From: an uncultured Alphaproteobacteria bacterium
GTDB lineage: Bacteria; Pseudomonadota; Alphaproteobacteria; MPNO01; UBA830
Assembly: GCA_913046035.1 (NCBI GenBank)
Contig: CAJWSW010000007.1
Span: forward strand, 5,116-69,115
Length of the DNA: 64,000 bases
Direction of reading: 5' to 3'
Positions 8,945 to 61,136 of this stretch are shown one piece after another. Below the pieces are notes generated by a model. It ran no database searches, was not told the DNA's origin, and worked only from the letters and a program-made list of their open reading frames with translations. The translations under genes and the position numbers were made by a program. Within the stretch, counting starts at the first letter, position 1; each line of letters begins with the position of its first letter.

Positions 8945-8946
8945 TG

Positions 8947-11810: not shown

Positions 11811-12057
11811 GAATCGAATACAAATCGAGATGTTTTTGGCGCATTTGTAAGACAGCCTTTTCAGATGATGGACTGCAAAAGAGTGATATTTCGCATGTCT
11901 TCAACTATTAACGCAGCCCAAGAGTTAGACTACATGTGAAAGATAGTCACACCTAGGTGTTTTCCGCATGGCGAGGTTTGACCGAATGAAGGTTCTGCCG
12001 TAATCCTAAATTTCCCCGCGGGTCATTCCCGTTACAATCGATGGAAATGCAAACGCC

Positions 12058-15737: not shown

Positions 15738-15803
15738 ACCCTTGTTTTGTAGTAAAATGCATAGAAACGTATTTATGCCCTTCAAAAAACGAACTTCGTT
15801 AAA

Positions 15804-27496: not shown

Positions 27497-27507
27497 GGAG
27501 ACACGAA

Positions 27508-28353: not shown

Positions 28354-28367
28354 GAAGTACACACGAA

Positions 28368-29177: not shown

Positions 29178-29293
29178 CGTTGCCCTATAACAGAACCGCG
29201 CCGTTTGAAACACCGATTAGAGTAACCCCTAGTGGGTAAAATCTCCCAGCGCTTAACTAGTCCCGCGAACGTATCAACCCCACAAATTCAGCG

Positions 29294-30109
29294 ATGTTAA
29301 AATTCTTGAGCGACGAACAGCTTTCCAACTGGAAACGCGATGGAGCAGTCTGGCCCATCGACCTGCTAACGACTGCTGAGGTTAACGATTTGGCACAACG
29401 GCTTGAAATTCTCGAGGCCTCCATTGGGGTCGAGGCGCAATCTAAATTTCGCATCAAAGCCCACCTACCTTTTCCGTGGCTTTGGGACTTAATTCGAAAT
29501 CCGCGGCTCGCCGATATCATTGAAGACCTTTTGGGCCCTAATATCGTGTGTTGGGGTTCATCTTTTTTTACCAAGAAACCCCATGACCCGCGTTTCGTTT
29601 CCTGGCACCAGGACTCAACCTATTATGGGCTAGAACCACCAGAGTCGATAACAGCCTGGGTCGCATTCACCCCAGCCAACGCGTTGTCTGGTTGTATGAG
29701 AATCATTCCAGGTAGTTACAAAGGCGACGCAATTCTACCGCACGAAGAAACCTTCGGGAAAAACAACTTATTGTCACGTGGCCAAACGATACTCGGCATC
29801 GACGAAAGTGCAGCGGTCGAAATGCCGCTGCAACCCGGTCAAATATCCGTCCACCACAACAAAACGATACACTCTTCTAGACCCAACAAAGCCGATTGGC
29901 CGCGCGTCGGGTTCGCAATCCATTTTACAACTACAGACGTCCATCAAACTCAGTTTGCCAACCCTCTGGCCATCCATATCCGAGGCGACGATCCGGAGGG
30001 TAATTGGATCGAAGATCCGTACCCAGAATATGAATTATCACCGGCGAGTGTGAAGGCTTGCGAAGATTATTGTAAAAGATACCGCTCGGCGATAGCGGCG
30101 CGAATCTAG
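29294..30109 (+). CDS. PhyH-family Fe(II)/2OG oxygenase (paralog 2)
   Basis: 271 aa, clearly paralogous to the previous gene (KAHLPFPW[ML]WD[IL]IRN, WHQDSTYYG). Confidence 0.8.
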   Translation: MLKFLSDEQLSNWKRDGAVWPIDLLTTAEVNDLAQRLEILEASIGVEAQSKFRIKAHLPFPWLWDLIRNPRLADIIEDLLGPNIVCWGSSFFTKKPHDPRFVSWHQDSTYYGLEPPESITAWVAFTPANALSGCMRIIPGSYKGDAILPHEETFGKNNLLSRGQTILGIDESAAVEMPLQPGQISVHHNKTIHSSRPNKADWPRVGFAIHFTTTDVHQTQFANPLAIHIRGDDPEGNWIEDPYPEYELSPASVKACEDYCKRYRSAIAARI

Positions 30110-37742: not shown

Positions 37743-38666
37743 TTGAAAATGCTTTTCAAAAGTGGCCTTGCCGCACTATCAAAGTCACCTTCTGTGTTGA
37801 CAGGACTGGTCATCGCCGTCGTCGCAATGTTTCTTTTCTCCCTTACACACACGTCTGTGCGCCTGATGTCGGACACTATGACTGCATTCCAGATTGTATT
37901 TTGGCGTATGCTCTTGAGCATGGCGATGCTAATGCCTTGGTACGCATGGCAGGGTTTTGGCCTCCTGAAAACCCGTCGACCAGGCATGCATGCTCTGCGG
38001 GCCGCCGTAAATTGCGGGGGCATGCTACTCTGGTTCTTCGCGATTGCGGTTGTGCCGCTCGGTAAAGCGGTGGCTATCCATTTTGTGTTGCCAATATTTG
38101 TGATGGTGCTCGCCGTCATTGTCCTGCGAGAGCGAGTAGGCATCCGACGAATGTCGGCAGCGCTGGTCGGCTTTGGCGGGGTCCTCCTTGTACTGCGCCC
38201 GAACGAATTTGGCATTGGCTGGCCAGAGATAATGATCCTAGGGTCAGCACTTTGTTACGCCACAACAGTTATTTTTCTCAAATACATGGTAAAAAGTGAA
38301 ACACCACTCGCCCTCACCTTTTACACAAATTTCTTTATTTTATTGTTCACTATCCCGCCAACAATATGGTTTTGGGTACCGCCCTCGGTAGACGATATTT
38401 TTCCTATACTAGCTATCGGCGTAACCGGGACTTTCGCACCACTGTTGTACACGACCGCTTTGCGTATTGCGGATGCAAGCATCATTGCCGCGACTGATTT
38501 TCTTCGTCTGCCAATTACAGCAGGTCTAGCATTTGCTCTATTTGGCGAGGTGCCAGATATTTGGGTTTGGATCGGAGGCGGCATCATTTTCTTAAGCACT
38601 TGGTACATTGCTGTTCGAGAAAGTCGGCTAGAAAAATCCCGCAAAGATCAGATAAAGGCCCGTTGA
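37743..38666 (+). CDS. DMT-superfamily (EamA-like) transporter, paralog 1
   Basis: 307 aa, 10 TMS, duplicated EamA domain. Confidence 0.8.
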   Translation: MKMLFKSGLAALSKSPSVLTGLVIAVVAMFLFSLTHTSVRLMSDTMTAFQIVFWRMLLSMAMLMPWYAWQGFGLLKTRRPGMHALRAAVNCGGMLLWFFAIAVVPLGKAVAIHFVLPIFVMVLAVIVLRERVGIRRMSAALVGFGGVLLVLRPNEFGIGWPEIMILGSALCYATTVIFLKYMVKSETPLALTFYTNFFILLFTIPPTIWFWVPPSVDDIFPILAIGVTGTFAPLLYTTALRIADASIIAATDFLRLPITAGLAFALFGEVPDIWVWIGGGIIFLSTWYIAVRESRLEKSRKDQIKAR

Positions 38667-39577
38667 TGCACACTCTAATACGTTGGTTTGCGGCAAGGCC
38701 GGCCAACGTCCGCGGCCTCATTTGGTGCTTACTCGCGGCGATCACGTTCATGTCAATGGTAATGATTGTGCGCCGACTTTCGACAGAGTTTAACGCGGGT
38801 GAACTAGCCTTCTGGAGAGCATTATTTGGGCTGCTCTTGCTTGCGCCGGTCTTGATGCGAACGGGCGCTAAAATTTTTCGCACTAAAAAGATCAGCCTAC
38901 ACGTTTTGCGCAACCTAATGCACTTCGTTGCGATCGCTGCATGGTATTACGCCATCTCGGGCATCAACCTTTCTGTGGGCATGTCTTTGCAGTTTTCTGT
39001 CCCAATAATCACCATAATACTGGCTATTGTATTTTTGGGTGAACGTGTAAGTGCGGCGCGATGGGCAGCAACGGCCGCGGGGTTTGCAGGTGTGCTGATC
39101 ATCCTGCGGCCGGGGATCGAGCCCGTCACAATCTTTGCGATTGCCGCGATGGTTGCCGCAGTGGGATATGCCGGCGCGAATATTGCCACCAAGATGCTAA
39201 GCCCGGACTCAAACAGCGATACTATCGTGTTCTACATGAACGCGATCCATCTACCGCTGGCATTAGCTACGGCAATGTTAATGGGTGGATTTTCAATTCC
39301 GTCATTAGGACAGTTGCCATGGTTAGTGGGCGTCGCCGCGAGTGCAACGCTAGCACATTGGCTGCTAGCTCAAGCACTGGCGCAAGGAGACGCCAGTGTG
39401 GTTATTATCGGAGAATTCTCGAAACTGCCATTGGTCACGATAGGAGCATTTTTATTTTTTGGTGAAGCCCCAGTGGTTTGGGCCTGGCTGGGCGGGGCTA
39501 TTGTCTTCGCGACGACCTTGTATATCGTTCGCCTTGAGACCCGAGCTGCGAAAACAACAGTTATGACGCCCGACTAA
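38666..39577 (+). CDS. DMT-superfamily (EamA-like) transporter, paralog 2
   Basis: ATG at 38666 sharing one nucleotide with the upstream stop. The ORF-track N-terminal extension is rejected. Confidence 0.75.
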   Translation: MHTLIRWFAARPANVRGLIWCLLAAITFMSMVMIVRRLSTEFNAGELAFWRALFGLLLLAPVLMRTGAKIFRTKKISLHVLRNLMHFVAIAAWYYAISGINLSVGMSLQFSVPIITIILAIVFLGERVSAARWAATAAGFAGVLIILRPGIEPVTIFAIAAMVAAVGYAGANIATKMLSPDSNSDTIVFYMNAIHLPLALATAMLMGGFSIPSLGQLPWLVGVAASATLAHWLLAQALAQGDASVVIIGEFSKLPLVTIGAFLFFGEAPVVWAWLGGAIVFATTLYIVRLETRAAKTTVMTPD

Positions 39578-39600
39578 TCCTGGATCAGAATACAACCTTT

Positions 39601-40497
39601 ATGGCAAAACTCGGCACACAAACAGATCAAACGCCACAAAACGCTATCCTTGCTGCTGTCTGGGTGCTGGGGACTGTTGCATCTTTCGTTCTAATGATGG
39701 TTGCAGTGCGTGAGCTTTCCACCCACATGTCTAGCTTCGAGCTGCTTTCATTCCGATCAATTATTGGTATTCCAATTATGTGTTTGGTAGCCTGGCGGTT
39801 GGGTTTCAATAGGATAAAAACCCAACGAGCCAGAATGCAAATTGGGCGGAATGTAGTTCATTTTGGCGGCCAATGGTGCTGGGTCATTGGCATAACGCTG
39901 CTGCCAATGGCCCATGTGACTGCACTCGAATTTACCATGCCGATGTGGACAGCAATTATCGCTATTTTATTCCTGGGTGAAAAAGCTAAATCACACCGGA
40001 TTATTGCCATCATTGTAGGCCTAGTAGGGGTTATGGCTATTCTGCGCCCGGGCTTTGAAATAATCACCGAAGGCGCGCTTGTAGTCCTTCTAGGTGCTCT
40101 CCTCTTCGGCGCATCTAATGTAATGATGAAATCCCTCACAGCAGATGATCAGCCCTGGGTGATTGTGTTTTGGATGCAAATCATTCAATTACCACTCGCG
40201 CTTCTGCCGGCGGTTTTTTACTTTGAATGGGTGTGGCCTACATTGGCAGACACACCGTGGCTTCTCGCGATCGGGCTAACTGGTATGTCAGCACACTTCT
40301 GTCTTGCTCGAGCCTTCCAGCTCGCAGATGCCACCTTCTGCATGCCAGTTGATTTTGTACGCCTACCTCTCACCGCCCTAATAGGATGGCTCGTTTACTC
40401 GGAGGGTGTCAGCGTCTGGGTACTGGTCGGCGCATTCCTAATATTTGGCAGTAATTATTATGCTGTCTGGCGCGAAACGGGGCAAGCAGACCGGTAA
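39601..40497 (+). CDS. DMT-superfamily (EamA-like) transporter, paralog 3
   Basis: 298 aa EamA-like membrane protein. Confidence 0.8.
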   Translation: MAKLGTQTDQTPQNAILAAVWVLGTVASFVLMMVAVRELSTHMSSFELLSFRSIIGIPIMCLVAWRLGFNRIKTQRARMQIGRNVVHFGGQWCWVIGITLLPMAHVTALEFTMPMWTAIIAILFLGEKAKSHRIIAIIVGLVGVMAILRPGFEIITEGALVVLLGALLFGASNVMMKSLTADDQPWVIVFWMQIIQLPLALLPAVFYFEWVWPTLADTPWLLAIGLTGMSAHFCLARAFQLADATFCMPVDFVRLPLTALIGWLVYSEGVSVWVLVGAFLIFGSNYYAVWRETGQADR

Positions 40498-41369
40498 TGC
40501 CCCCTTTATTGCAGGCAGTTTTATGGTTTGGTGGAACCATGACCGGCTTTGCCGGCATGGCGATAGCCGCACGCAGCCTTCACGCCGAAATGTCGACATT
40601 TGAGATTTTATTTTTTCGCAGTCTAATTGGAGTGCTCGTTGTTCTACCTTTCATTGTCCGCGCTGGTTTTGTTGATATCAAGGTGCAGAAATTCCACTGG
40701 CATCTGGGGCGGGCGATCGTACAGTTCGGAGCGCAAATTTGCTGGATGTACGGGATTGTGCATTTAACCCTATCCGACCTTACGGCAATAGAATTCTCTG
40801 TTCCAATTTTCACAGCTTTACTTGCCGTACTATTCCTCGGAGAGCGCATGTGGCGGCATAAATGGATCGCCACAATTTTAGGGTTCGCAGGAGTTCTTAT
40901 TATTCTGAGGCCAGAAGGATCCGCATTTAACCTCGCGGGACTAGTAATGATTTTAGGTTCTTTCCTTTATGCCGGCTCCGGAGTGTTGGTAAAATTCCTG
41001 ACACGCACGGAGTCGCCACAGGGCATTATATTCTGGATGAACCTTCTGCAGCTCCCAGCCGGTTTGCTGCCAGCTATACTTATCTACGACTGGGTAACAC
41101 CGAGCCTTACAGATATCCCTTGGATCCTAGTTTGGGGCCTATCTGGTTTGTGGGCCCATTACACTATGGCGCGCGCACTTGCTTTAGCCGACATCACTAT
41201 CGTTTTTCCTTTAGATTTTTTGCGTCTGCCAGCGATGGCTGTTATCGGCTATCTATTATATGCTGAAGCGCTGGATCCTTGGACCGCTGTTGGCGCGCTA
41301 GTCATTTTTGCCGGCAACTGGTATAGCGTCCGCGAAGAATCCCGTCGCGGATCTTCTCTCAGACATTAA
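40497..41369 (+). CDS. DMT-superfamily (EamA-like) transporter, paralog 4
   Basis: 290 aa. TAATG overlap with paralog 3. Confidence 0.8.
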   Translation: MPPLLQAVLWFGGTMTGFAGMAIAARSLHAEMSTFEILFFRSLIGVLVVLPFIVRAGFVDIKVQKFHWHLGRAIVQFGAQICWMYGIVHLTLSDLTAIEFSVPIFTALLAVLFLGERMWRHKWIATILGFAGVLIILRPEGSAFNLAGLVMILGSFLYAGSGVLVKFLTRTESPQGIIFWMNLLQLPAGLLPAILIYDWVTPSLTDIPWILVWGLSGLWAHYTMARALALADITIVFPLDFLRLPAMAVIGYLLYAEALDPWTAVGALVIFAGNWYSVREESRRGSSLRH

Positions 41370-42363: not shown

Positions 42364-43236
42364 TTAGTGACCACCTTTTCGCTCGAAGACAATGACGTAA
42401 TAGCTAGCGCAGAAAATCACTAGCGCTCCTATCCAAGTATAAAGATCGGAGCTTTCACCAAAAGCTAGCCAGCCGATAATAGCAGCTGTAATGAGCCGGG
42501 AGAAATCAAATGGTTGGACCACGCGAGCATCGGCAATAGAAATTGCCCGGGTTATCGCATACTGACCGAGCAAAGCGAAAACCCCAACTCCAATTATGGC
42601 AGGTCCGTCGGCCCAGGTAGGCGCGGTCCAATAAAACCAGGCCGGTATAGAGGAAAAGACAAACATAAGAATGCTTACATAAGCCACGATAACGGCAGCA
42701 GAGTCTGTCCGGGATAAAGTCTTCATGCAGGTATTAACCCCTGCGAATAAAATGCCGGTTGCGAGTGCGGCTAGCATGCCTAGGTTTATTTCCTGAAAAC
42801 CTGGCCGCAGTATGATTATTGCTCCGGCGAAAGCGGCCGCAATCGCTGCCCAGGTCCGCGGTCCTGCGCTCTCGCCAAGGATCAGTACGGCGAGAAGGAT
42901 GGTAAAGATCGGCTGAATGTACAGTAAGGCAGTATAATCCGAGATGGGGATTATGCTGACCGCATAGAACCAACACATCATACCGCCGTAAGTAAGACAG
43001 GCCCGCATAACGTGAATTGGAAAAACGGTCGTCTTCATGACTGAAATGCCTTTGCGCGCGACCAACGGCATAATAAAAAAAATTGCAATAACGGCGCGCA
43101 TAAAGGCAAGTTGCGCGGTGGAATAATCAGCTGATAAATCGCGAGTACAAACCGACGCTAATGTATAACCGGTCCCCGCAAGGATCATCCATCCGGGGCC
43201 AGCTACAAATGGAGGAACACTAGTAAGCACAGACAA
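42364..43236 (-). CDS. DMT-superfamily (EamA-like) transporter, paralog 5
   Basis: 290 aa, 10 TMS. Confidence 0.8.
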   Translation of the reverse strand: MSVLTSVPPFVAGPGWMILAGTGYTLASVCTRDLSADYSTAQLAFMRAVIAIFFIMPLVARKGISVMKTTVFPIHVMRACLTYGGMMCWFYAVSIIPISDYTALLYIQPIFTILLAVLILGESAGPRTWAAIAAAFAGAIIILRPGFQEINLGMLAALATGILFAGVNTCMKTLSRTDSAAVIVAYVSILMFVFSSIPAWFYWTAPTWADGPAIIGVGVFALLGQYAITRAISIADARVVQPFDFSRLITAAIIGWLAFGESSDLYTWIGALVIFCASYYVIVFERKGGH

Positions 43237-50089: not shown

Positions 50090-50343
50090 TATACGTATAC
50101 CTCAGTTTTCATAATAAGATCAAAACGTGAGCACTGGCCCAGCGCGGCACCACACGAGCGAGAAGAAAATACCATTTGGCCTTGGGGAAGGAAGAGACAT
50201 TTAGCTTCGCTTACTCGACACTTTATATCTCGAGGTACCGCATAAATCCCCATAAGTCATTAAATGGAATGTCCCCAGGTAATTGTGAAGACATTGGATC
50301 AAACTCGATTTCGAGTTACATGAAAATAATTTATTGTGTATCG

Positions 50344-51168
50344 ATGATACACAGAACTGTCCCTTCTTCGAACGAAGAAATTCCTGTTGTCGGCGTCGGC
50401 ACGTGGCGCGGCTTTGATATAGGGTCCGGCGCAGTCGAGCGCGCGAGCCTCAGTGCAGTGCTGGAAACGTTGATGAATAGCGGCGCCTCTGTAGTTGACA
50501 CATCACCTATGTATGGCAGGGCAGAAGCCGTCGTCGGCGATTTACTAGCCGACCTAAACCGACGCGACGAAGCTTTCATAGCAACTAAAGTATGGACCCA
50601 AGGCCGCCAGGAGGGAATTCTCGAAATGGAGAAGTCCTTCCGCTTATTACAGACTGATGTAATCGATTTGATGCAGATCCACAATTTAGTTGATTGGCGC
50701 ACCCACCTTAAAACTATGCGTTCTTGGCAGCGGGATGGACGCTTCCGCTATCTCGGCTACACCCACTATCGCCCGCATGCATTTAGCGATCTCATTGAGT
50801 GTCTCCGCGCAGAGCCGGTCGATTTCCTTCAGTTCTGTTACTCGATCAATGAACCGGATGCAGAGGACCAGATCTTACCCTTCTGCGAGGCAAATGGGAT
50901 TGCTACTATTATCAATCTGCCATTCGGGGGTGGCGATCTACTGACACGAACATCTTTCAAACCATTGCCTGATAACGCCATCGAATTAGGTTGCAAGAGT
51001 TGGGCCCAATATTGTCTGAAGTATATTATCGCTCACCCAGGTGTTACCTGCGTTATTCCAGGCACATCAAACCCGGCTCATTTAGCCGACCTCCTAGCTG
51101 CCGCAGATGGACCCTTACCTGACCCAGAGATGCGCAATAGCATGTCTTTTGCGTTTTTAAACGCTTAA
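50344..51168 (+). CDS. Aldo/keto reductase
   Basis: AKR TIM-barrel blocks (GVGTWRG, DTSPMYG, DLMQIHN). Start is uncertain (50320 or 50344). Confidence 0.7.
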   Translation: MIHRTVPSSNEEIPVVGVGTWRGFDIGSGAVERASLSAVLETLMNSGASVVDTSPMYGRAEAVVGDLLADLNRRDEAFIATKVWTQGRQEGILEMEKSFRLLQTDVIDLMQIHNLVDWRTHLKTMRSWQRDGRFRYLGYTHYRPHAFSDLIECLRAEPVDFLQFCYSINEPDAEDQILPFCEANGIATIINLPFGGGDLLTRTSFKPLPDNAIELGCKSWAQYCLKYIIAHPGVTCVIPGTSNPAHLADLLAAADGPLPDPEMRNSMSFAFLNA

Positions 51169-51235: not shown

Positions 51236-52378
51236 TTACCTAACGTTTGTCCCGCCGGTAACCTTCGATAGCGCAGCATCAAGGCTACTCACTGTACGAT
51301 CTATGTTGTGCAGCTTATCAAGGCCAAATAAACCAACTCGGAAGGTCTGAAAGTCATCAGGCTCGTCGCACATCAGCGGAACACCTGCCGCGGTTTGCAA
51401 ACCAACCTTTGCAAATTTGCTTCCATTGTGAATATCTGGATCGTCGGTGTAGCAGACTACCACCCCTGGGGCGCCGTATTGGTCAGCCGCAAGGCTCTTA
51501 AACCCATGTGAATTCATAAGACCGCGCACCTGATTACCGAGTTCTTGTTGTTCATCGCGCACCTTGTCAAACCCATATGCATCGGTTTCGCTCATCGACT
51601 GGTGGAATTTAACGATGGCATCAGTTGGCATCGTCGCATGATAAGCATGCCCCCCGCCTTCATAAACTTCCATAATCTGCAGCCATTTCTTAAGGTCCGC
51701 GGAAAAACTCGTACTAGTGGTATTTTCAATGCGCTCACGGGCAGCCTGCCCCAACATAACAAGCGCACTGCATGGAGAAGCACTCCACCCTTTTTGAGGC
51801 GCGCTAATCAAAACATCAATACCGATGTTATCCATATCTACCCAAATGGTGCCAGAAGCAATGCAGTCGAGGACCAATAAACCGCCTACATCATGTGCCG
51901 CGTTAGCTACCTCGCGAAGATACTCATCGGGAAGGATCATCCCGGCGGAGGTTTCTACGTGAGGAGCAAAAACAACGTCAGGTTTTTCGTTCCGAATTGC
52001 CGCTACGACCTCTTCAATCGGTGCCGGGGCAAATGCCGCCTTGCTACCGCTTTCTACGGGGCGGGCTTTAAGCACTATTTCCTCAGACGGGATGTTTCCT
52101 GCTGCGAATATCTGAGACCACCGGTAGCTAAACCAACCGTTGCGTATAACGAGGCATCTCCGACCTGAACCGAACTGGCGCGCTACCGCCTCCATTCCAA
52201 ATGTACCTCCCCCGGGCACAAGAACGACGGAATGAGCATTATAAACTCGTTTCAGCGTCGATGAGATATCCGTCATTACCCCTTGAAAGGTCTGTGACAT
52301 GTGGTTAAGCGAGCGGTCGCTGAAAACCACAGAAAATTCAAGCAAACCGTCAGGATCAACGTCGGTCAAGCCAGCCAC
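51236..52378 (-). CDS. Class V aminotransferase (alanine-glyoxylate / serine-pyruvate / 2-aminoethylphosphonate-pyruvate family)
   Basis: 380 aa class V PLP fold, SAPQKGWSASP with the Lys-containing region. Confidence 0.75.
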   Translation of the reverse strand: MAGLTDVDPDGLLEFSVVFSDRSLNHMSQTFQGVMTDISSTLKRVYNAHSVVLVPGGGTFGMEAVARQFGSGRRCLVIRNGWFSYRWSQIFAAGNIPSEEIVLKARPVESGSKAAFAPAPIEEVVAAIRNEKPDVVFAPHVETSAGMILPDEYLREVANAAHDVGGLLVLDCIASGTIWVDMDNIGIDVLISAPQKGWSASPCSALVMLGQAARERIENTTSTSFSADLKKWLQIMEVYEGGGHAYHATMPTDAIVKFHQSMSETDAYGFDKVRDEQQELGNQVRGLMNSHGFKSLAADQYGAPGVVVCYTDDPDIHNGSKFAKVGLQTAAGVPLMCDEPDDFQTFRVGLFGLDKLHNIDRTVSSLDAALSKVTGGTNVR

Positions 52379-52454
52379 TACAGCCTCCTAAAGAATTGTA
52401 TATTTGTTATTTAGCAGCTTTAAACTGAAAATCTACTATACGCGACGAATTATC

Positions 52455-53801
52455 TTATTCCGCCGCCAACTCCTCGGGAAAAAAACGGTTTTTTGGTCGA
52501 GGCAAACCAAGATTGTCACGCAATGTCGGCCCTTCATATTCCGTCCGGAACAATCCACGGCGTTGGATTTCGGGAATTACCTGATCAACGACATCATCTA
52601 AGCCCTGCGGAAGATACGGGAACATTACGGTAAACCCGTCGCTGCCGCAGGTTTCTATCCATTCCTCCATTTCATCTGCGATAGTGGCTGCTGTCCCGAC
52701 CATGGCAAGACCGGAATATCCACCCAAACGTTGCGCTAGCTGGCGCACGCTTAAGCCTTCTCGGTCGGCGAGAAGAACTGCGCGATCACGGCCCGATTTA
52801 GTAGCGTTACTATCAGGTAGGTCTGCAGGCAAAGGACCGTCTGGATCAAATCGAGATGCATCGACACCAAGGGTTATCGACAAAGACGCGATTGCACTTT
52901 CTTCATGAACAAGACTGTCCAGTTTTGCCCTTTTTGCTTGGGCCTCCTCAACGGTATCACCGACTATAATCAGACAACCTGGCATAATTTTGAGGTCCTC
53001 CGGGTTGCGGTTTACTTTTCTCATTCGACCTTTCACGTCTGAGTAAAACGCCCGACCTGCCTCGAGATTGCTTTGCGCGGCAAAGACAGCCTCTGCTGTT
53101 TCGGCAGCGAGCTGTCGACCAGCGTCTGATCCACCTGCCTGTACAATTACAGGCCAGCCTTGGATAGGGCGAGCTATGTTCAACGGTCCGGCAACTTTAA
53201 AAAAGTCACCTTCGTGGTTGAGGCGATGCATTTTTTCAGGATCCATAAAATACCCAGACGCCTGATCCCGAACAAAGGCATCCTCGGCCCAGCTGTCCCA
53301 GAGGCCAGTTACGACATCATAAAATTCACGAGCGCGACGGTAGCGTTCCGAGTGCTCCAGGTGGTCTTCTTTTCCAAAGTTTTTCGACGCGTCAGGATTG
53401 GAAGTCGTGACTATGTTCCAACCCGCGCGTCCGCCGCTGATATGATCAAGAGACGCGAAACGACGGGCAATGTGATATGGCTCGTCATAAGTCGTCGACC
53501 CGGTCGCCATCAGCCCAAGATGCTCGGTTGCCATCGACAATGCCGAAAGTAAAGTGAAGGGTTCAAACGATGTTGGCGTAGTCGACCGTCTGAGCGCCTC
53601 GATTGGCATATTGAGAACAGCTAGATGATCAGCCATGAAAAAACTGTCGAATTTAGCCTCTTCGAGTCGCTGCGCGAATTTCTTGATATGGTCGAAGTTA
53701 AAGTTTGCGTCTGCATAGGCCCCAGGCCAGCGCCAACTGCCAGTGTGAATAGTCGTCGGTCGCATGAAGGCGTTAAGTCGAATTTGGCGTTCTCTACCCA
53801 T
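52455..53801 (-). CDS. LLM-class flavin monooxygenase, NtaA/SnaA/DszA subfamily
   Basis: 448 aa, longer LLM subtype with a characteristic N-terminus (...FMADHLAV..., ...RAGWNIVTTSNP...). Confidence 0.8.
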   Translation of the reverse strand: MGRERQIRLNAFMRPTTIHTGSWRWPGAYADANFNFDHIKKFAQRLEEAKFDSFFMADHLAVLNMPIEALRRSTTPTSFEPFTLLSALSMATEHLGLMATGSTTYDEPYHIARRFASLDHISGGRAGWNIVTTSNPDASKNFGKEDHLEHSERYRRAREFYDVVTGLWDSWAEDAFVRDQASGYFMDPEKMHRLNHEGDFFKVAGPLNIARPIQGWPVIVQAGGSDAGRQLAAETAEAVFAAQSNLEAGRAFYSDVKGRMRKVNRNPEDLKIMPGCLIIVGDTVEEAQAKRAKLDSLVHEESAIASLSITLGVDASRFDPDGPLPADLPDSNATKSGRDRAVLLADREGLSVRQLAQRLGGYSGLAMVGTAATIADEMEEWIETCGSDGFTVMFPYLPQGLDDVVDQVIPEIQRRGLFRTEYEGPTLRDNLGLPRPKNRFFPEELAAE

Positions 53802-53823
53802 TACTTTTTTCTCTGATTAGCAC

Positions 53824-56169
53824 CTAGGTTTTTGAGCCTGCAATCGCTTCTAAAATTCGGCGCGGCGTTACTGGTGTCTCGACCACCTCAACGCCATAGC
53901 CACGCAGGGCGTCATTGATAGCATTTGCAATCGCCGCCGGCGGCGGGATGGCACCGCCTTCTCCTAGCCCTTTAACCCCATATTCTGTGAGCGGCGATGG
54001 CGTCACCAAATGATCGACGCGAAGATTTGGTAAATGTGTCGACCCTGGCATCATATAATCCGCAAAAGTTGACGACAACGGTTGCCCGTCCGCGTCATAA
54101 CACGATTCTTCATAAAGAGCTGTGCCGACACCCTGCAAAGCGCCGCCGATAATCTGGCCATCAACAATCATCGGATTTACGATCGTACCGCAATCCTCAG
54201 AAATCACGTAATCAAGGAGCTCGACATGGCCGAGTTCAGGGTCAATTCTCACAACACAAGCATGGGTTGCATAAGAAAAAGGACTGTTATCAGGTGACGG
54301 GCGAAAACCAGACGTAACCTCAACACCGGCGGGATCAACATCTGCCGGCAGTTCCTCGGGGTTTCGGTGCCAGACGCGTGCGATTTCGGCGAATGTAACG
54401 GCGCTAGATGGCCCAATAACACAGGCATCTCGGATACTGGTATCATCGAACTCGCATTGTAGAAGATGCGCGCCAATTCGGCGGATTTGCACTCCCAAAA
54501 CGTCGCAGGTTCGTGCTATTGCGCCACCCGCCATAATCATCGACCTCGACGCATAGGTGCCAGTCGAGTAGGGTGATGTAGCAGTATCCCCATGGCGTAT
54601 CGCGACCATTGCAATATCCATGCCGAAACGCTCGCAAGCAACCTGCGCTAGCGTTGTCTCCATTCCTTGACCGTGGTTTTGAACTCCAACACCAATCTCG
54701 AGACCACCGTCAGGTGTGAGTCTAATATGCGCTTGTTCATATCCGGGTATGGCAGCGAGCCCAGCGCGGGCAGCAGCCGAAGTCTGCAGTGCCGTCATTT
54801 CGATATAGCAACCAAAACCGACGCCTATCAACCGTCCGTCTGCCTCATCCTGACGCTGCCGACTGCGCACGGCTTTTAAATCAATAAGAGTACCAGCCCG
54901 TCTTAAAGCCTCTTGGTAATCACCACTGTCAAACTCACCGCCGGTAATAGTCTTGTAAGGCATGGCATCGCTGGGAACGAGGTTTTGCATACGCAAGTCG
55001 TAAGGTTCGCATCCCAGTTTTCGCGCCATCGCATCGATTGCTAATTCCATCGCAAAACAAATCCCCGGCCGGGCTACGCCGCGATACGGCACGATCGGAG
55101 GCTTGTTTGTTGCTACTGCCCGGGAGCGAACCTTATATGCTGAAAACTTATAAGGCCCGTGCAGAGTGCGGCCAGCCATCGTTGACTCAAGAATGTTCGA
55201 ATGCGGATAAACGGAATATGCACCAGAATCGACGATGATATCGGCTTCCACACCAATAAAATTTCCATCCGTGTCAGCATGCAGCGTCACCGAGTAATGG
55301 TGTTCGCGAGCATTGGCCGCCGCAATCAGATGTTCTCGCCTATCTTGTATCCACCGTACCGGCTGTTTTACCTGCATGGCGACCCAAGGAATGAAGATTT
55401 CCTCGGGGATCAACACACATTTATAGCCGAAGCCCCCACCTACATCCGGCGCGATCACATGCACCTGATTCTGCCGTAGACCTAGGCATTCGCACAGCGC
55501 ATTTTTAAGGATATGGGGTATTTGCGACGAACTATGCACGACTAGCCGCTCTTCCCGGGCGTCCCATTCTGCCAAAACTGCAGCGCCCTCCAGAGGGTTT
55601 ACAGCCTGTCGGTTCATCCGAAACGTTCTTGTCACCGATACCGTTGCACGATCCAGGTTACTTGCTTTTTCCTCAAACAAGGAATCAAGAATGACGTTGT
55701 CACCCCACTGCTCGTGGACCAGTGCAGGCGGACTTTCTGCGGCGTCCACCATATCGACAATTGCGGGTAATGGATCAAAGGAGATTTTGGTTTGAGTGGC
55801 GAGGTCTTCAGCCGCCGCGCGAGTATCAGCCAAACAAACCGCGACCGCCTCACCAACAAAACGAAGCTTACCGATTGCAAGGTGCGGATAGTCTGAAGGT
55901 TTGTGGCCGGGGTATTTCGAAATAACGTGGATGGGTTTCACCCCATCCGACAGCATGTCCTCCGCTGTGAAAACCCGCTGTTGCTCTAAATCGGGCTTGG
56001 TGACTGAGAGTTTCTCCGCATGAGCAGTCGGACTGCGAACGATCGCGGCTTCAAGCATGCGGGGTCGCACAATATCCGCGACGTAGCGACCGTGGCCATC
56101 CAGAAAGCGCTTATCCTCCTTTCGAAGAACGCTGGCACCTATCCCTTGGACCGTCGCTCCATCCGGCAT
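53824..56169 (-). CDS. Xanthine dehydrogenase-family molybdopterin-binding large subunit, paralog L2
   Basis: 781 aa with APDVGGGFG, VPYRGVARPGICFAME and EDCGTIVNPMIVDGQ. Confidence 0.85.
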   Translation of the reverse strand: MPDGATVQGIGASVLRKEDKRFLDGHGRYVADIVRPRMLEAAIVRSPTAHAEKLSVTKPDLEQQRVFTAEDMLSDGVKPIHVISKYPGHKPSDYPHLAIGKLRFVGEAVAVCLADTRAAAEDLATQTKISFDPLPAIVDMVDAAESPPALVHEQWGDNVILDSLFEEKASNLDRATVSVTRTFRMNRQAVNPLEGAAVLAEWDAREERLVVHSSSQIPHILKNALCECLGLRQNQVHVIAPDVGGGFGYKCVLIPEEIFIPWVAMQVKQPVRWIQDRREHLIAAANAREHHYSVTLHADTDGNFIGVEADIIVDSGAYSVYPHSNILESTMAGRTLHGPYKFSAYKVRSRAVATNKPPIVPYRGVARPGICFAMELAIDAMARKLGCEPYDLRMQNLVPSDAMPYKTITGGEFDSGDYQEALRRAGTLIDLKAVRSRQRQDEADGRLIGVGFGCYIEMTALQTSAAARAGLAAIPGYEQAHIRLTPDGGLEIGVGVQNHGQGMETTLAQVACERFGMDIAMVAIRHGDTATSPYSTGTYASRSMIMAGGAIARTCDVLGVQIRRIGAHLLQCEFDDTSIRDACVIGPSSAVTFAEIARVWHRNPEELPADVDPAGVEVTSGFRPSPDNSPFSYATHACVVRIDPELGHVELLDYVISEDCGTIVNPMIVDGQIIGGALQGVGTALYEESCYDADGQPLSSTFADYMMPGSTHLPNLRVDHLVTPSPLTEYGVKGLGEGGAIPPPAAIANAINDALRGYGVEVVETPVTPRRILEAIAGSKT

Positions 56170-56199
56170 AGCGCTGCTTCCTCCCCGCCCGGTTACTGA

Positions 56200-56667
56200 T
56201 CAAATGCGCCGCTGTTCCAGTACCGACAGGATCGCTTTTACGATCCCCACATAACCAGTGCAGCGACAAAGGTTACCTGCCAATTCCAACCGAACCCGAT
56301 CTTCATCGGCATCAGGTAGGCGGGTTACGATATCACGCGCAGCGACCAACATCCCTGGCGTGCAATAACCGCATTGAAGTGCATGATTCTCATGAAAAGC
56401 CTGTCGAAGTTGCGCCATAGGCTCATCCTGATCAAAGCCTTCAATGGTGGTAATTTCGCTTCCATCGGCAACCGCCGCAAAAGTTATACAAGATCGAACG
56501 GGCTCTCCATTCATCAACACGGTACAGGCACCGCATACTCCGTGCTCACAGCCTAGATGAGTGCCGGTGAGACGCTGACGATCACGAATAAAATCTGCCA
56601 AAGAAAGTCTTGGTTCTACGTCAGCCTTAATATGTTCACCGTTAATATTTATTGATAATTCCGTCAT
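56200..56667 (-). CDS. (2Fe-2S)-binding small subunit (CoxS/XdhC-like)
   Basis: 155 aa with CEHGVCGACTV and CGYCTPGM motifs. Confidence 0.9.
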   Translation of the reverse strand: MTELSININGEHIKADVEPRLSLADFIRDRQRLTGTHLGCEHGVCGACTVLMNGEPVRSCITFAAVADGSEITTIEGFDQDEPMAQLRQAFHENHALQCGYCTPGMLVAARDIVTRLPDADEDRVRLELAGNLCRCTGYVGIVKAILSVLEQRRI

Positions 56668-57479
56668 GCGAACGCCCCCTGAACTGCACGACTTAGCGCT
56701 ACGGCATGTATTTGCAATTCGTAATCGTCAAAGCCAGCGTCATACCTATCAAGGATATCACGGACTTCGGCGATTGATACCTCCTGCACACCTGAGGCTA
56801 GTCTTTCTTCTATTTCTGTCACCCTAAAGGGCGCAGACTCAGTCGCGCCGCATACAGCGCGCGCTTCGACGCCGAGAGTGACGGCTCCGATCGCGTCTGC
56901 AAATTCACCTGGCTTGCGGTTCACTTTATAATAGCCCCAATTAGCATCCGTCCCCAAGACAGGCAGCTCAAATCCCGTCAGGATCTCATCCCATCCGAGG
57001 CCAGTCGAAAATGGTCCAACCGTAAAACCATCCAAAGAGATTGTCCGGATGCCATTACCACCGGCGGCGGTTACACTTCCACCCAAAGCTAGAAGTGCAG
57101 AAGGCCAGTCCGCTGATGGGTCGGCGTGCGCGACAGAACCTCCGATGGTGCCACGATTCCGAACTGACCGGTAAGAAATGCCGGTAGCGACAAATTGCAT
57201 ATAATCGCCTGTTTTTCCTGGCACTTCACCGTCCTCGATCCGCGCATGCGACACTCGGGCGCCAACCCTGATGGCATTACCGGTTTCCTCTATACCATCA
57301 AGTCCCTCTACTTTGCTCAGATCCAGCACAACATCTGGTTGTGCCAGGCGGAGGTTCATCATCGGCCCCAGCGACTGACCGCCGCCAAGAACTCGTGTTT
57401 CTCCCTCTGCATTGCCCAAAGCCTTAACCGCTTCGTCCAGCGATGCCATTCGCTGATGCTCGAATTTTGCGGGTTTCAT
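56664..57479 (-). CDS. FAD-binding medium subunit (CoxM-like molybdopterin dehydrogenase FAD domain)
   Basis: 271 aa with GGGQSL and GTIGGS motifs. ATGA-coupled on both sides. Confidence 0.85.
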   Translation of the reverse strand: MKPAKFEHQRMASLDEAVKALGNAEGETRVLGGGQSLGPMMNLRLAQPDVVLDLSKVEGLDGIEETGNAIRVGARVSHARIEDGEVPGKTGDYMQFVATGISYRSVRNRGTIGGSVAHADPSADWPSALLALGGSVTAAGGNGIRTISLDGFTVGPFSTGLGWDEILTGFELPVLGTDANWGYYKVNRKPGEFADAIGAVTLGVEARAVCGATESAPFRVTEIEERLASGVQEVSIAEVRDILDRYDAGFDDYELQIHAVALSRAVQGAFA

Positions 57480-59851
57480 GCCGCCTCTCCTTCTTTTCTA
57501 TCCCGTGCCGCCTCGATCGCCGCACGAACACGGCGCGGAGTAAACGGCGTTTCCATCACCTCAGCGCCAATCTGTTTAAGCGCGTCATTTATCGCATTAC
57601 CGATCGCGGCGGGGGTCGGGATCGTGCCGCCCTCTCCCATCCCCTTTATACCGTATTCGGTAAAAGGCGAGGGACTTTCCATATGATCGACCCTGTACAT
57701 AGGAGCATCGGTCGCACTCGGCATCATATAATCTGCGAAAGTTGAAGCGCCGGGGTTCCCCATTTCATCGTAGAGACTTTCTTCAAGCAATGCAGTGCCA
57801 ATACCCTGTGTGGCACCCCCAAATGTTTGTCCTTCTACAATCATCGGGTTAACGATGGTACCGCAGTCCTCCACTATAACGTAATCCAATACCTTCACCT
57901 TACCGGTTTCTACATCGAGAGAAATCTTGCATGCATGGCTGGCGTAAGTAAAAGCACCAGAGTCTGGTTCAGGACGATAACCCATTGTTACCTCGACGCC
58001 ACCCTGGTCAACATCTTCAGGCAATTCATCAGGGTTCAGGTACCAGACCCGTCCGATCTCCGCGAAAGACACCTCACCCTTGCCGCTGACCACTTTCCCG
58101 CCCGCTATACTCACCTCAGTGCGTTCACACTGCATTAGATGCGCACCAATAATCTCCATGCGCTCCGCTAGCACTCTACAGGCCCTCGCCGTCGCGCCAC
58201 CCGCCATCACCATTGAGCGTGACGCGTAGGTGCCAGTTGAGTACGGGGTCAAACCAGTATCGCCATGGGTAACCATTACGTTGTCGGGGTCAATGCCCAA
58301 AACCTCACAAGCCATCTGCGCCATCGAGGTTTCCATGCCTTGTCCGTGGCTTTGAACGCCTATGCGAAGTTCCAATCCGCCGTCTGGCGTGAGCCTGACC
58401 GTCGCCTGTTCGTAACCAGGCACCATTGCAACGCCCCAGCTCGAAAAAACAGAGGTGCCGTGTGCCGTCTGTTCGACGTAGGAACCCATGCCAACACCGA
58501 TTATTCGACCATCATCTGTCGGAACGCCCTGGCTCGCCCGGACCTTCTCCAGACCAATCATATCTACGGCCATTTCAACGCTTTTCGCATAATTCCCGCT
58601 GTCGAAGTGTTTTTTTGCTATTGACATGAAGGGCATCGCACTCTCAGGCACCATGTTTTTCATACGAATTTCATGCGCTTCCATCCCGATCTCCCGAGCG
58701 AGTGCGTCGATTGTCATCTCCATCGCAAAACACACACCAGGACGTGCAACGCCTCGATAAGGCATAAGACCAGGCTTGTTAGTCACCGTGGTTTGGGTGC
58801 GGCACTTATATGCCTTGAAATTATAGGGGCCCGGCAAATTACCGTGGGCCATTGCCCCCTCCAAGCCATTGGTGAAAGGGTAAACTGAATAGGCGCCAGC
58901 ATCGACTGTCACGTCACAGTCTAGACCTAACATTCGCCCGTCAGGCGTTGCGTGCAGCGTAATTTGATAATGATGTTCTCTGCAATTTGCTCCGGTTACC
59001 AAGTGTTCTCGGCGATCCTCTATCCAACGGATGGGACATTCAAGTTTGCGCGTCAGGTATCCAGCGACCAACTCTTCGGGCTGCAGCAGTGCCTTGCAGC
59101 CAAAGCCACCGCCAACATCTGGAGCGATCACCCGAACCTGACGTTGCTCAAGATCCAGGAATTCGGCGAGACCGTTGCGAATTAGATGCGGAACTTGGGT
59201 CGAGGTCCACATCATTAGTTGATCCTGTCGGTCATCCCATTCAGCGAATACCGCCTTCCCTTCCATAGGGTTCATTGCTTGACGGTTCATACGATATTCG
59301 CGGCGAATAACAACGGTCGCTTCGTCAGCTATTTTTTGAAAATCGTCATCAGAAAATGTCTCAAAGACAATGTTGTCTTCCCATTCATCGTGGACCAGTG
59401 GCGCGTCAGGTTTTTTAGCTGCCAACATATCCGTTACCGCCGGTAAGATGTCGTATTCAACCTCTACCATCTGGGCGATATCCTCGGCATCGGCTCGGCT
59501 ATCGGCGACACAGACAGCGACCGGCTCGCCTGCAAACCGCACTTTTCCCGCCGCCAGCGCCGGATAGTCAGACAATTTGTAGCCGGGTAATTTGGACAAA
59601 GCCCGCATCGGTTTGAGACCAGGAAGATCCTCCGAAGTGAAAATGGCATGCTCGTATCCGGCAGGCTTCACGATAGATTTAATGTGCGCGTGCGCAACTG
59701 AGGCGCGGACAAACGCCATCTCTTTTTGACCCGGCCGCTTGAAATCCGAGGTGAATTTACCCTTACCGGCGAGGTGACGCGCATCCTCTTTTCTTAAAAC
59801 GCGAGCCCCAATTCCCTTTCCGTCTACCGATCCACCGTCCGCCATTATCAA
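57476..59851 (-). CDS. Xanthine dehydrogenase-family molybdopterin-binding large subunit, paralog L1
   Basis: 791 aa with APDVGGGFG, MPYRGVARPGVCFAME and EDCGTIVNPMIVEGQ. Confidence 0.85.
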   Translation of the reverse strand: MIMADGGSVDGKGIGARVLRKEDARHLAGKGKFTSDFKRPGQKEMAFVRASVAHAHIKSIVKPAGYEHAIFTSEDLPGLKPMRALSKLPGYKLSDYPALAAGKVRFAGEPVAVCVADSRADAEDIAQMVEVEYDILPAVTDMLAAKKPDAPLVHDEWEDNIVFETFSDDDFQKIADEATVVIRREYRMNRQAMNPMEGKAVFAEWDDRQDQLMMWTSTQVPHLIRNGLAEFLDLEQRQVRVIAPDVGGGFGCKALLQPEELVAGYLTRKLECPIRWIEDRREHLVTGANCREHHYQITLHATPDGRMLGLDCDVTVDAGAYSVYPFTNGLEGAMAHGNLPGPYNFKAYKCRTQTTVTNKPGLMPYRGVARPGVCFAMEMTIDALAREIGMEAHEIRMKNMVPESAMPFMSIAKKHFDSGNYAKSVEMAVDMIGLEKVRASQGVPTDDGRIIGVGMGSYVEQTAHGTSVFSSWGVAMVPGYEQATVRLTPDGGLELRIGVQSHGQGMETSMAQMACEVLGIDPDNVMVTHGDTGLTPYSTGTYASRSMVMAGGATARACRVLAERMEIIGAHLMQCERTEVSIAGGKVVSGKGEVSFAEIGRVWYLNPDELPEDVDQGGVEVTMGYRPEPDSGAFTYASHACKISLDVETGKVKVLDYVIVEDCGTIVNPMIVEGQTFGGATQGIGTALLEESLYDEMGNPGASTFADYMMPSATDAPMYRVDHMESPSPFTEYGIKGMGEGGTIPTPAAIGNAINDALKQIGAEVMETPFTPRRVRAAIEAARDRKEGEAA

Positions 59852-60134
59852 TTCCCTTTATCACGCTTCCGCAAATCACAGCATGCCAGGCATCGCGCAA
59901 AAAGTTGTCCGCGTTGAGGGCACAACTTATCCCCCTGCACCGAAACTACCAACAAAAGCGACAAACCATCCAGTTACTAACTTAACAGTATTTTGGTGGG
60001 CGCGACGATCATTGATAATAGAACGGGACAAAGCGTCGCATTCGAGGAAAAAACAAAAAACGCGACAGTTTTGCCTTCTCAAAGAACAACATACACCACA
60101 GCAAGGAAGCTTAAATGAGGCATTGGGAACCTCA

Positions 60135-61136
60135 TCATTGCCCATAAATTTGCGAAGACGCATAGCGCAAAACACTTGAATTCGCGCCAACAATAGGGCC
60201 CTTCTCGCTGATATAACGCCGCCACAATCGCGCACCGCGCATTCCCTTGTACAGCCCTAGAACATGACGTGCCATCGAATAGAACGGGACACCATCTGCG
60301 ATTTGGTGGTCCATGTATTCGATATATCGATCAAGAACCACTTCACGGGTCTCTGGCGCCGTTCCATTCAGGATCTCATTTTCAATTTCCGAGAGAAACC
60401 AGGGGTTTTGGTATGCAGCTCGGCCAATCATTACACCGTCAACATGCCGCAAATGCGTCGCCGTTTCCGCGACAGTCATAATACCGCCATTTATGGATAT
60501 CGAAAATTCCGGGTATTTCTGTTTGAGCCGGTACACTGTTTCATAACATAACGGTGGTATTTCTCTATTTTCTTTAGGGCTTAATCCATTGAGCCAAGCC
60601 TTTCGTGCATGAATGATAAAGGTGTCGCATCCCCCGTTAGCCACAGTTTCAATAAAGTGTACGAATTCATCCCAGCTGTCGTAATTATCCACGCCAATTC
60701 GGGTTTTGACTGTTACAGGAAGATCTACTGCCTCACGCATCGACCGAATGCAGTTAGCCACAACTTCAGGCTCTTTCATAAGGCACACTCCGAACTTCCC
60801 GTTTTGAACCCTGTCGCTGGGGCAGCCCACATTAAGATTTACTTCGTCATAACCGTATTCCGATGCAATTTCCGCGCAACGTGCTAAATCCCCGGGATCG
60901 GACCCTCCGAGTTGTAGCGCTAAAGGATGTTCGGATTGATTGTATTTCAAGAAACGATCCCGTTCCCCGTGAAGGATTGCACCCGTCGTTATCATTTCGG
61001 TGTAAAGCAAAACGGCGGACGAAATTAGCCGCAAAAAATAACGATCATGCCGGTCAGTGCAGTCCATCATCGGGGCAATGGAAACTCGCCTGTCAAGAAC
61101 GTTGGCTTTTTTGGTAATTTTCGTTTTAGCAGACAT
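60135..61136 (-). CDS. dusA: tRNA-dihydrouridine synthase A
   Basis: ...SIAPMMDCTDRHDRYFLRL... plus a DUS TIM-barrel. Start taken at MSAKTK. Confidence 0.8.
   Translation of the reverse strand: MSAKTKITKKANVLDRRVSIAPMMDCTDRHDRYFLRLISSAVLLYTEMITTGAILHGERDRFLKYNQSEHPLALQLGGSDPGDLARCAEIASEYGYDEVNLNVGCPSDRVQNGKFGVCLMKEPEVVANCIRSMREAVDLPVTVKTRIGVDNYDSWDEFVHFIETVANGGCDTFIIHARKAWLNGLSPKENREIPPLCYETVYRLKQKYPEFSISINGGIMTVAETATHLRHVDGVMIGRAAYQNPWFLSEIENEILNGTAPETREVVLDRYIEYMDHQIADGVPFYSMARHVLGLYKGMRGARLWRRYISEKGPIVGANSSVLRYASSQIYGQ

Follow-up and report, generated by a model that had tools for sequence, protein, structure and literature searches.

Two paralogous catalytic subunits beside one M and one S subunit in an alphaproteobacterial molybdenum hydroxylase cluster

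The gene cluster considered here lies in a 64-kb stretch of DNA (the window; 64,000 nucleotides of contig CAJWSW010000007.1, assembly GCA_913046035.1) from an uncultured marine alphaproteobacterium. It encodes two paralogous catalytic subunits of a molybdenum (Mo) hydroxylase, L1 and L2, together with one medium subunit, M, which binds flavin adenine dinucleotide (FAD), and one small subunit, S, which carries two [2Fe-2S] clusters. Judged by their domains, L1-M-S and L2 belong to the xanthine oxidase family, and specifically to the LMS-type (large, medium and small subunit) molybdenum hydroxylases. The explanation favoured here, with confidence evenly balanced for and against, is that a single electron-transfer module of S and M would serve two alternative catalytic subunits with different substrates.

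Under this explanation, L1-M-S would be a self-sufficient core enzyme. The accessory L2 would serve as an alternative to L1 and bind the S ([2Fe-2S]) and M (flavin) proteins of that enzyme. Two holoenzymes, L1MS and L2MS, would result, both probably assembled as dimers of trimers like Qor, Kdh and carbon monoxide (CO) dehydrogenase. As is usual for the family, the substrate would be hydroxylated at Mo with an oxygen atom from water, and the electrons would pass from the Mo cofactor through the two iron-sulfur (FeS) clusters to FAD. The cofactor is inferred to be of the molybdopterin cytosine dinucleotide (MCD) type, by analogy with the Qor/CoxL-like branch, whose solved members carry MCD. As to origin, the L2 gene would have come from an old sister clade and been added directly behind S. 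The two genes that follow L2, encoding a flavin mononucleotide (FMN)-dependent luciferase-like monooxygenase (LLM) and an aminotransferase, would have fused to the operon on loss of a LysR gene.

Gene cluster and its two catalytic subunits

The six genes form a minus-strand string at 51236-59851, in the order L1-M-S-L2-LLM-aminotransferase. Domain assignments are from Pfam, and protein lengths are given in amino acids (aa).

57476..59845, minus strand: L1, Mo-pterin-binding catalytic subunit, 789 aa from the ATG at 59845; Ald_Xan_dh_C, MoCoBD_1, MoCoBD_2
56664..57479, minus strand: M, FAD-binding medium subunit, 271 aa; FAD_binding_5, 1.4e-39
56200..56667, minus strand: S, small subunit with two [2Fe-2S] clusters, 155 aa; Fer2, Fer2_2
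56170..56199, minus strand: S-L2 spacer, 30 nucleotides (nt), with a GGAGGA ribosome-binding site; read directly
53824..56169, minus strand: L2, accessory paralogous catalytic subunit, 781 aa; Ald_Xan_dh_C, MoCoBD_1, MoCoBD_2
52455..53801, minus strand: NtaA/DmoA-family FMN-dependent LLM, 448 aa; Bac_luciferase
51236..52378, minus strand: class V aminotransferase of the AGXT/serine-pyruvate type, 380 aa, GTG start; Aminotran_5

This order and placement had been proposed in a first-pass annotation of the same DNA and were borne out, with the aminotransferase lying just outside the range 52455-59851 that had been assigned to the cluster. The aminotransferase is the last gene of the string and is convergent with an aldo/keto reductase gene (50176..51168). 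For L1, the program that called the open reading frames (ORFs) placed the start at a TTG at 59851, two codons before the ATG at 59845; the ATG is likely the true start because AAGGGA lies upstream of it and the alignment of L1 with L2 begins at that Met. The proposed ATGA overlaps at the L1/M and M/S junctions were read directly in the DNA, whereas the S-L2 gap, given as 31 bp, is actually 30 nt. GGAGGA stands 8 nt before the L2 ATG, and the LLM gene starts 22 nt past L2.

There is no terminator-like hairpin and no obvious promoter in the 30-nt S-L2 spacer. A promoter and terminator scan gave counts no better than those of shuffled sequence, with nothing in the S-L2 or L2-LLM spacers, and is uninformative for an alphaproteobacterium. 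No riboswitch for the Mo cofactor or any other ligand was found upstream of L1, as the window gave no Rfam match above the gathering thresholds, and 59700-60300 gave none at E <= 1. The window as a whole contains one M gene, one S gene and three L genes according to tblastn. A chaperone of the XdhC/CoxI type or a member of the MocA family was not matched among the 57 window ORFs scanned with Pfam.

L1 and L2 align over their full length (BLASTP: 887 bits, E = 0; 434/783 residues identical, 55%), a similarity far beyond chance. All four identical blocks quoted in the first-pass annotation are present in the alignment; such blocks are family-wide cofactor motifs. Gene conversion was considered as their source and rejected, given a nucleotide identity of 59%, a longest identical run of 14 nt and the same codon at 42% of the identical residues. 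In a neighbour-joining tree of L proteins (757 columns, 100 bootstraps), the marine L2 genes form one clade with 100% bootstrap support and are joined with L2-like genes of other organisms, again at 100%. This L2 and L2-like group is sister (87%) to the clade of L1 and its 60-67% relatives. Since the tree places them in separate sister clades, L1 and L2 are old paralogs and not products of a recent tandem duplication, which upholds the age proposed for them earlier. The trees of L1 and L2 are roughly congruent, and L2 has accordingly long been inherited in its position behind S.

Both L proteins score above cut-off for PF01315, PF02738 and PF20256. Inactivating substitutions at the Mo site of L2, named in advance as the observation that would refute a second catalytic subunit, were looked for, and none occurs among the residues tested. 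The positions corresponding to Qor Gln224, Arg371 (in the active-site loop), Tyr545/Ala546 and Glu743, as well as the GGGFG motif, are invariant in L1, L2 and all orthologs, according to HMMER alignments and an alignment of 61 sequences. Qor Glu743 is equivalent to Kdh Glu748 and bovine Glu1261 and is the catalytic Glu, while Qor Gln224 lies near the apical oxo ligand (PMC8305194). The partner subunits are likewise complete in these respects. S retains all eight cysteines, arranged as C40-X4-C45-X2-C48-X11-C60 and C99-X2-C102-X31-C134-X-C136, and M contains the FAD motifs GGGQS (32-36) and TIGG (111-114), as defined for Kdh and Qor (PMC8305194).

Nonsynonymous divergence (dN) between the window and six orthologous loci is 0.03-0.19 across all six genes. 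Synonymous divergence (dS) is saturated, so that dN/dS ratios are not computable for most genes and dN alone is given. The values for L2 (0.09-0.135) are similar to those for L1 (0.06-0.13). By this measure, L1 and L2 are both under strong purifying selection, and both apparently remain functional.

The substrate channel was compared in 11 L1 orthologs and 8 L2 orthologs. Eight positions, here in Qor numbering, differ between L1 and L2, each fixed within its clade apart from the Cys at position 257, which is found in 9/11 L1 sequences.

Position 257: Cys in L1 (9/11), Tyr in L2
Position 259: Ala in L1, Cys in L2
Position 260: Leu in L1, Val in L2
Position 331: Phe in L1, His in L2
Position 332: Thr in L1, Ser in L2
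Position 334: Gly in L1, Ile in L2
Position 469: His in L1, Leu in L2
Position 470: Gly in L1, Gln in L2

For Qor and Kdh, positions 259, 332, 334, 470 and 545 are counted among the channel or substrate residues (PMC8305194). The L2 signature extends in part to the L2-like proteins of other organisms, with His331 and Ile334 in three of five each, Leu469 in four and Gln470 in all five. Because these differences are fixed by clade, the L1 and L2 enzymes should differ in substrate. This fits one part of the dual-specificity idea put forward in the first-pass annotation, namely the existence of two specificities. The substrates of L1MS and L2MS are probably small N-heteroaromatic or related compounds.

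A redundant or decaying L1 duplicate would account for the absence of L2 from several close relatives. This possibility is largely refuted by the sequence evidence and is very improbable: the reading frame is full length with catalytic and cofactor-binding residues intact, a dN of about 0.1 against saturated dS is similar to that of L1, the paralogy is old and free of gene conversion, and the channel residues are clade-fixed and not scattered.

L2 as an accessory gene and the proposed sharing of M and S

Some close relatives have L2 and others lack it, which makes it an accessory gene. A search with L2 returned a narrow L2 clade (64-99% identity), followed by many L1-like proteins. The closest marine relatives came from a metagenome scan and from exact-protein look-ups; in the scan of genome contigs the best was 56% among the matches listed. 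'Alphaproteobacteria bacterium MarineAlpha11_Bin1' and numerous marine contigs from Tara and JGI carry the string L1-M-S-L2-LLM-aminotransferase in the same queG-dus context. This neighbourhood was present in 24/24 contigs examined for P0004, and the S-L2 junction, the L2-LLM junction or more is preserved in about 17 other metagenome contigs. The source organism of the window is an uncultured marine alphaproteobacterium of this group. One metagenome contig (L090; three-digit L numbers denote related contigs and loci) is about 99-100% identical to the window at the protein level.

Orthologs of L1 with 78-91% identity are found in L1-M-S operons both with and without L2. In L087 and L088, whose L1 proteins are 79% and 78% identical, the operon has the same queA-tgt-queG-dus-arsC-vut1 context as in the window. 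There, the convergent aldo/keto reductase follows directly after L1-M-S, and L2, LLM and aminotransferase are missing. L106 likewise has L1-M-S in queG-dus synteny without these three genes. A different arrangement is seen in L112 and L148, which lack L2 and read L1-M-S-sodB-lysR (opposite strand)-LLM-(two gp19-like genes)-aminotransferase. L111, whose L1 shares 98% identity with theirs, carries L2; in the DNA alignment of L111 with L112, the exchange of L2 for sodB coincides exactly with the stretch from the end of S to the LysR gene. Such naturally occurring pairs with and without L2 (L111 versus L112/L148) offer a ready-made comparison. The S-LLM gap of 2343 bp in L112/L148 has the size of an L gene, and a decayed L2 was considered there; it was rejected, as tblastn detected no L remnant and the gap consists of sodB and the LysR gene.

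In 12 of 13 related contigs, L2 lies 20-46 bp behind S, the exception being L102 with 129 bp. The L2 clade outside this setting consists mostly of orphan L genes. Those of L004/L005 stand next to genes for DUF3830, amidohydrolase_2, TctC and a Rieske oxygenase, and those of L167 and L168 are followed by an FAA-hydrolase family gene, with a transposase beside the L168 copy. No M or S gene was found in the available flanks of these four loci. Since its genes are so often orphans, the L2 clade would commonly depend on subunits encoded elsewhere. L006 is the only L2-clade relative with partners, in the order L(L2-like)-M-S-L(Kdh-like)-UbiD. It is flanked by genes for an FAD monooxygenase, a glyoxalase-type protein, an isochorismatase-type hydrolase and a dienelactone hydrolase, a gene set reminiscent of pyridine-ring catabolic clusters.

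From the single M and S in the window, the position of L2 close behind S in relatives and the mostly orphan state of the L2 clade, we infer that sharing of M and S is plausible. Several points weigh against it. It is gene context that makes binding of L2 to this particular S and M plausible, and additional M and S genes may lie elsewhere in the genome. With two L genes to a single M and a single S gene, a stoichiometry problem would arise unless the L subunits are made at lower levels. The M and S of L006 are 37% and 54% identical to those of the window, so that the ancestral partners of L2 may have differed and L2 would have had to adapt. With regard to substrate, all 13 NCBIfam matches for L1, and likewise those for L2, fall below cut-off, including XdhA, PucD, glyceraldehyde dehydrogenase alpha, 4-hydroxybenzoyl-CoA reductase alpha and PaoC.

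The neighbourhood of S and L2 could also be incidental, with L2 using an M and S encoded elsewhere or another electron acceptor. The mobile context of the L2 clade, with its orphans and the transposase neighbour in L168, speaks for this, as do the very different M and S beside the L2-like gene of L006 and the presence in the same window of another orphan L gene, L3. Nevertheless, the tight, same-strand S-L2 spacing has been kept across a clade whose synonymous sites are saturated, the roughly congruent L1 and L2 trees indicate long co-inheritance, and the 30-nt spacer shows neither a terminator nor an obvious promoter. Incidental adjacency is, on balance, improbable.

Relation to characterised enzymes and to other two-L clusters

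Among solved structures, QorL (1t3q_B) is the best relative of L1 (E = 2.6e-141, ~36% identical) and also of L2 (E = 3.2e-136), with identities of 34-36% for the two proteins. In the PDB search it ranked ahead of the CO dehydrogenases and Kdh for both. The best solved relatives of M are CutM, QorM and KdhM, and those of S are 4zoh_C, QorS and CoxS.

Qor, the quinoline 2-oxidoreductase of Pseudomonas putida 86 (PDB 1t3q), is, like L1-M-S, a three-subunit LMS enzyme; the match is full length, and the cofactor motifs of L, S and M are common to Qor and this locus. The differences concern the channel and the gene count. Trp331 of Qor is replaced by Phe in L1 and His in L2, and Leu334 by Gly and Ile, respectively. 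Gly470 is kept in L1 but is Gln in L2, and the active-site loop AYRGVG of Qor reads PYRGVA in both. Qor has one L gene, in contrast to the two present here. The substrate of L1 or L2 is almost certainly not quinoline. Catabolism of homarine (N-methylpicolinate) was also considered as the pathway and rejected, as the published homABCDER operon contains no Mo hydroxylase.

Aerobic Mo-Cu CO dehydrogenase, CoxLMS, shares the subunit architecture and fold family and gives similar bit scores in the PDB search. A CO dehydrogenase with two CoxL isoforms is suggested by the names of database homologs ('carbon-monoxide dehydrogenase large subunit') and by the best NCBIfam match of the L proteins, CODH_aero_grp5. 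The scores for this family are 539 and 568 bits, however, against a cut-off of 950, and TIGR02416 and NF040766 are far below cut-off as well. QorL is a better match than any CoxL, and the loop PYRGVA of L1 and L2 lacks the Cu-binding active-site Cys of AYRCSF (loops from PMC8305194). CoxG was found neither in the cluster nor among the 57 window ORFs scanned with Pfam; no match suggested coxD, E or F, although no search was aimed at those. On the active-site loop, the NCBIfam scores and the missing CoxG, the identification as CO dehydrogenase was rejected, and its likelihood is close to nil.

To our knowledge, the characterised LMS hydroxylases (Qor, CO dehydrogenase, Kdh, Ndh and 4-hydroxybenzoyl-CoA reductase) have all been described as one L with its own M and S. 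Orphan Mo subunits are known, as in XdhD of Escherichia coli. One redox-partner module serving several terminal oxygenases is familiar from Rieske oxygenase and P450 systems, where the partners interact transiently. In LMS hydroxylases, by contrast, S and M are stable structural subunits, so that sharing them would require alternative assemblies.

Functionally, a two-L system is best compared with the pair of Ndh (nicotine dehydrogenase) and Kdh (ketone dehydrogenase), although the comparison is one of analogy. Ndh, like its partner, has its own L, M and S. The two enzymes of Arthrobacter (Paenarthrobacter) nicotinovorans are paralogous Mo hydroxylases that act on successive intermediates of one pathway, and Kdh (PDB 7dqx) is a heterotrimer of its own KdhL, KdhM and KdhS (PMC8305194), whereas here one M and S stand beside two L genes. 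A further difference is the Kdh signature, a Lys at Qor position 224 together with the loop YRAPG, which is found in neither L1 nor L2. A second comparison, by description only, is with Bacillus niacini, a Firmicute in which two putative Mo oxidoreductases and one or more FeS proteins are encoded in one catabolic cluster (PMC4256190). The genes are putatively assigned there, and subunit sharing is outside the scope of that report.

A broader picture emerges from a sample of 80 loci in species-representative genomes, retrieved by family alignment among the matches listed. The loci close to L1 are mostly plain L-M-S operons, in Bradyrhizobium, Variovorax, Paraburkholderia, Achromobacter and Azospirillum. 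About 16 of the 80 have two same-strand L genes beside a single M and S; as the sample is biased and pattern-based, this share of 20% is only indicative. The earlier statement that canonical operons have a single L therefore applies to the characterised enzymes but not to genomes at large. The most frequent form, M-La-S-Lb, occurs in 12 loci from Alphaproteobacteria and Actinomycetes, including Methylobacterium organophilum, Tardiphaga, a metagenome-assembled genome (MAG) of Acetobacteraceae, Actinosynnema and several actinomycete MAGs.

L051, L054, L056-L060, L062, L066, L069, L070, L078: M-La-S-Lb, at ~7000-13200 in each

The order L-L-M-S is found in L053 and L068, and M-S-L-L in L036 and L049; L-M-S-L also recurs as a two-L pattern. 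The sampled Lb genes form their own clade with 100% bootstrap support. The members examined have Lys at the position of Qor Gln224 and the loop YRAPG, as in Kdh (loop sequence from PMC8305194). Every Lb is accompanied by a Qor-like La and by one M and one S. The corresponding protein of L006, L006_b, matches KdhL with E = 5e-176. The M-La-S-Lb clusters thus resemble, in sequence, an Ndh-plus-Kdh pair served by one M and S, and look like an uncharacterised family of two-step hydroxylases. The L pair of the window differs from them because both L1 and L2 are Qor-like. No paper was found that describes or tests one M and S serving two L subunits, the nearest being the B. niacini genome note (PMC4256190). 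The two-L layout is apparently fairly common in genomes and, as far as was found, biochemically unstudied.

These clusters bear on the main rival to the shared module, in which L1 and L2 would hydroxylate one scaffold in turn, such as a pyridine or purine-like compound attacked at two positions of its ring. A mixed (L1MS)(L2MS) complex is conceivable here because in this family the L subunits make up the dimer interface. Ndh and then Kdh provide an established case of sequential Mo hydroxylation, in the nicotine degradation of A. nicotinovorans (PMC8305194). In 12/80 sampled loci, a single M and S are accompanied by one Qor-like L (La) and one Kdh-like L (Lb), and L006 combines an L2-like L, a Kdh-like L and a UbiD decarboxylase beside its FAD monooxygenase, glyoxalase-type and isochorismatase-type proteins. 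On the other hand, L1-M-S is kept without L2, and L2-like genes occur without L1, which indicates that neither strictly needs the other. Moreover, Gln224 and the YRGVA loop mark both L1 and L2 as members of the Qor-like 'a' type, and both lack the Lys and YRAPG of Kdh-like second-step enzymes. Successive hydroxylation is accordingly regarded as unlikely, if still a serious contender.

The shared-module explanation can be extended, more tentatively than the explanation itself, to LMS hydroxylases in general. These enzymes may be modular, with the S and M pair forming a common socket for interchangeable, plug-in L subunits. Orphan L genes such as those of the L2 clade and L3 would then be satellites that borrow S and M, and M-La-S-Lb clusters would be a hard-wired version of the same principle. 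Gain or exchange of an L gene would be a quick way of widening the range of heterocycles that marine and soil bacteria can oxidise.

If sharing is true, the orphan 'coxL-like' genes would make sense as functional satellites; such genes are very common and are frequently annotated, wrongly, as CO dehydrogenase. The number of coxL-like genes in a marine metagenome would then reflect the capacity for heterocycle oxidation more than CO oxidation, and new specificities could be engineered by swapping only L. If sharing is not real, the locus amounts to two neighbouring members of a well-known family.

Neighbouring genes and the rest of the window

The LLM is assigned to the NtaA/DmoA family (TIGR03860, 556 bits against a cut-off of 279.7), and its best solved relatives are YtnJ/MoxC, nitrilotriacetate (NTA) monooxygenase and DszA. 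No partner flavin reductase was identified near it. The aminotransferase scores 40.1 for PF00266 against a cut-off of 21.5, with the PhnW and BhcA equivalogs far below cut-off. Its best solved relative, 3ke3 (E = 6e-143), is itself a 'putative serine-pyruvate aminotransferase'.

The distance between L2 and LLM varies among relatives, with values of 25, ~190, 278, ~350, ~650-690 or ~1530 bp. The 1.5-kb versions (L100, L102, L111, L115) contain an intact LysR gene of 289 aa on the opposite strand, divergent from LLM. Remnants of this gene, 168 and 66 aa long, are present in L099 (4569-5066) and L103 (5515-5712), respectively. In the window and in L001, L091, L093 and L096, no LysR gene stands between L2 and LLM. 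The divergent LysR of relatives, the occurrence of LLM and aminotransferase without L2 (L112, L148) and their absence from some L1-M-S loci (L087, L088) indicate that the two genes were ancestrally a separate, LysR-controlled unit. The tight L2-LLM fusion of the window is a derived state. For the same reasons, the earlier proposal that these two enzymes continue an oxidative C-N or C-S processing begun by the hydroxylase is at best weakly supported. An attractive pairing of the two would be NTA-type cleavage releasing glyoxylate, followed by glyoxylate transamination, but this is speculation. An odd insertion is seen in L112 (15428-16514), where two T4 gp19 tail-tube-like genes (PF06841) lie between LLM and aminotransferase.

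The third xanthine-oxidase-family L gene of the window, L3, is located at 3899-6220 on the minus strand. It encodes a protein of 773 aa that is ~31% identical to L1 and L2, and its best PDB match is a CoxL, 8uem; its loop reads YRGAG, with no Cys. L3 is an orphan with no M or S nearby. It stands beside genes for a divergent UbiD-family decarboxylase (2292-3773, plus strand), an LLM (6403-7410, minus strand) and a TRAP transporter (7634-10549, minus strand). The M and S pair at 56200-57479, the only one in the window, could serve L3 as well.

In L1-like L-M-S operons from soil and freshwater, the S frame runs into a CoxG (SRPBCC/START) domain, an apparent S-CoxG fusion. The S of the marine clade (155 aa) is without it.

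L013, 10828-12378: S-CoxG fusion
L011, 11070-12383: S-CoxG fusion
L022, 11137-12414: S-CoxG fusion
L017, 10900-12372: S-CoxG fusion
L007, 11038-12258: S-CoxG fusion

As CoxG delivers menaquinone to Mo-CO dehydrogenase (PMC13525633), the S-CoxG enzymes may be connected with the quinone pool.

Oxygenases and related enzymes are unusually numerous in the window, with four TauD, four LLM, HpaB, a GMC oxidoreductase, two UbiD and three xanthine-oxidase-family L proteins. This suggests a specialist in oxidising unusual dissolved organic compounds. A tandem array at 25764-30109 (plus strand) comprises three TauD-family and two PhyH-family Fe(II)/2-oxoglutarate dioxygenases. A second molybdoenzyme system, unrelated to the LMS hydroxylase, is encoded at 12058-16751 (plus strand). 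This trio of the dimethyl sulphoxide (DMSO)-reductase family consists of a 973-aa catalytic subunit of the Mo-bis(pyranopterin guanine dinucleotide) (Mo-bisPGD) type with an Fe4S4 domain, a 4Fe-4S ferredoxin subunit and a membrane anchor of the DmsC/NrfD type. Five EamA-family transporter genes lie within 6 kb, four of them apparently in tandem (37743-41369, plus strand) and one at 42364-43236 (minus strand); two of the EamA ORF calls overlap by ~100 nt.

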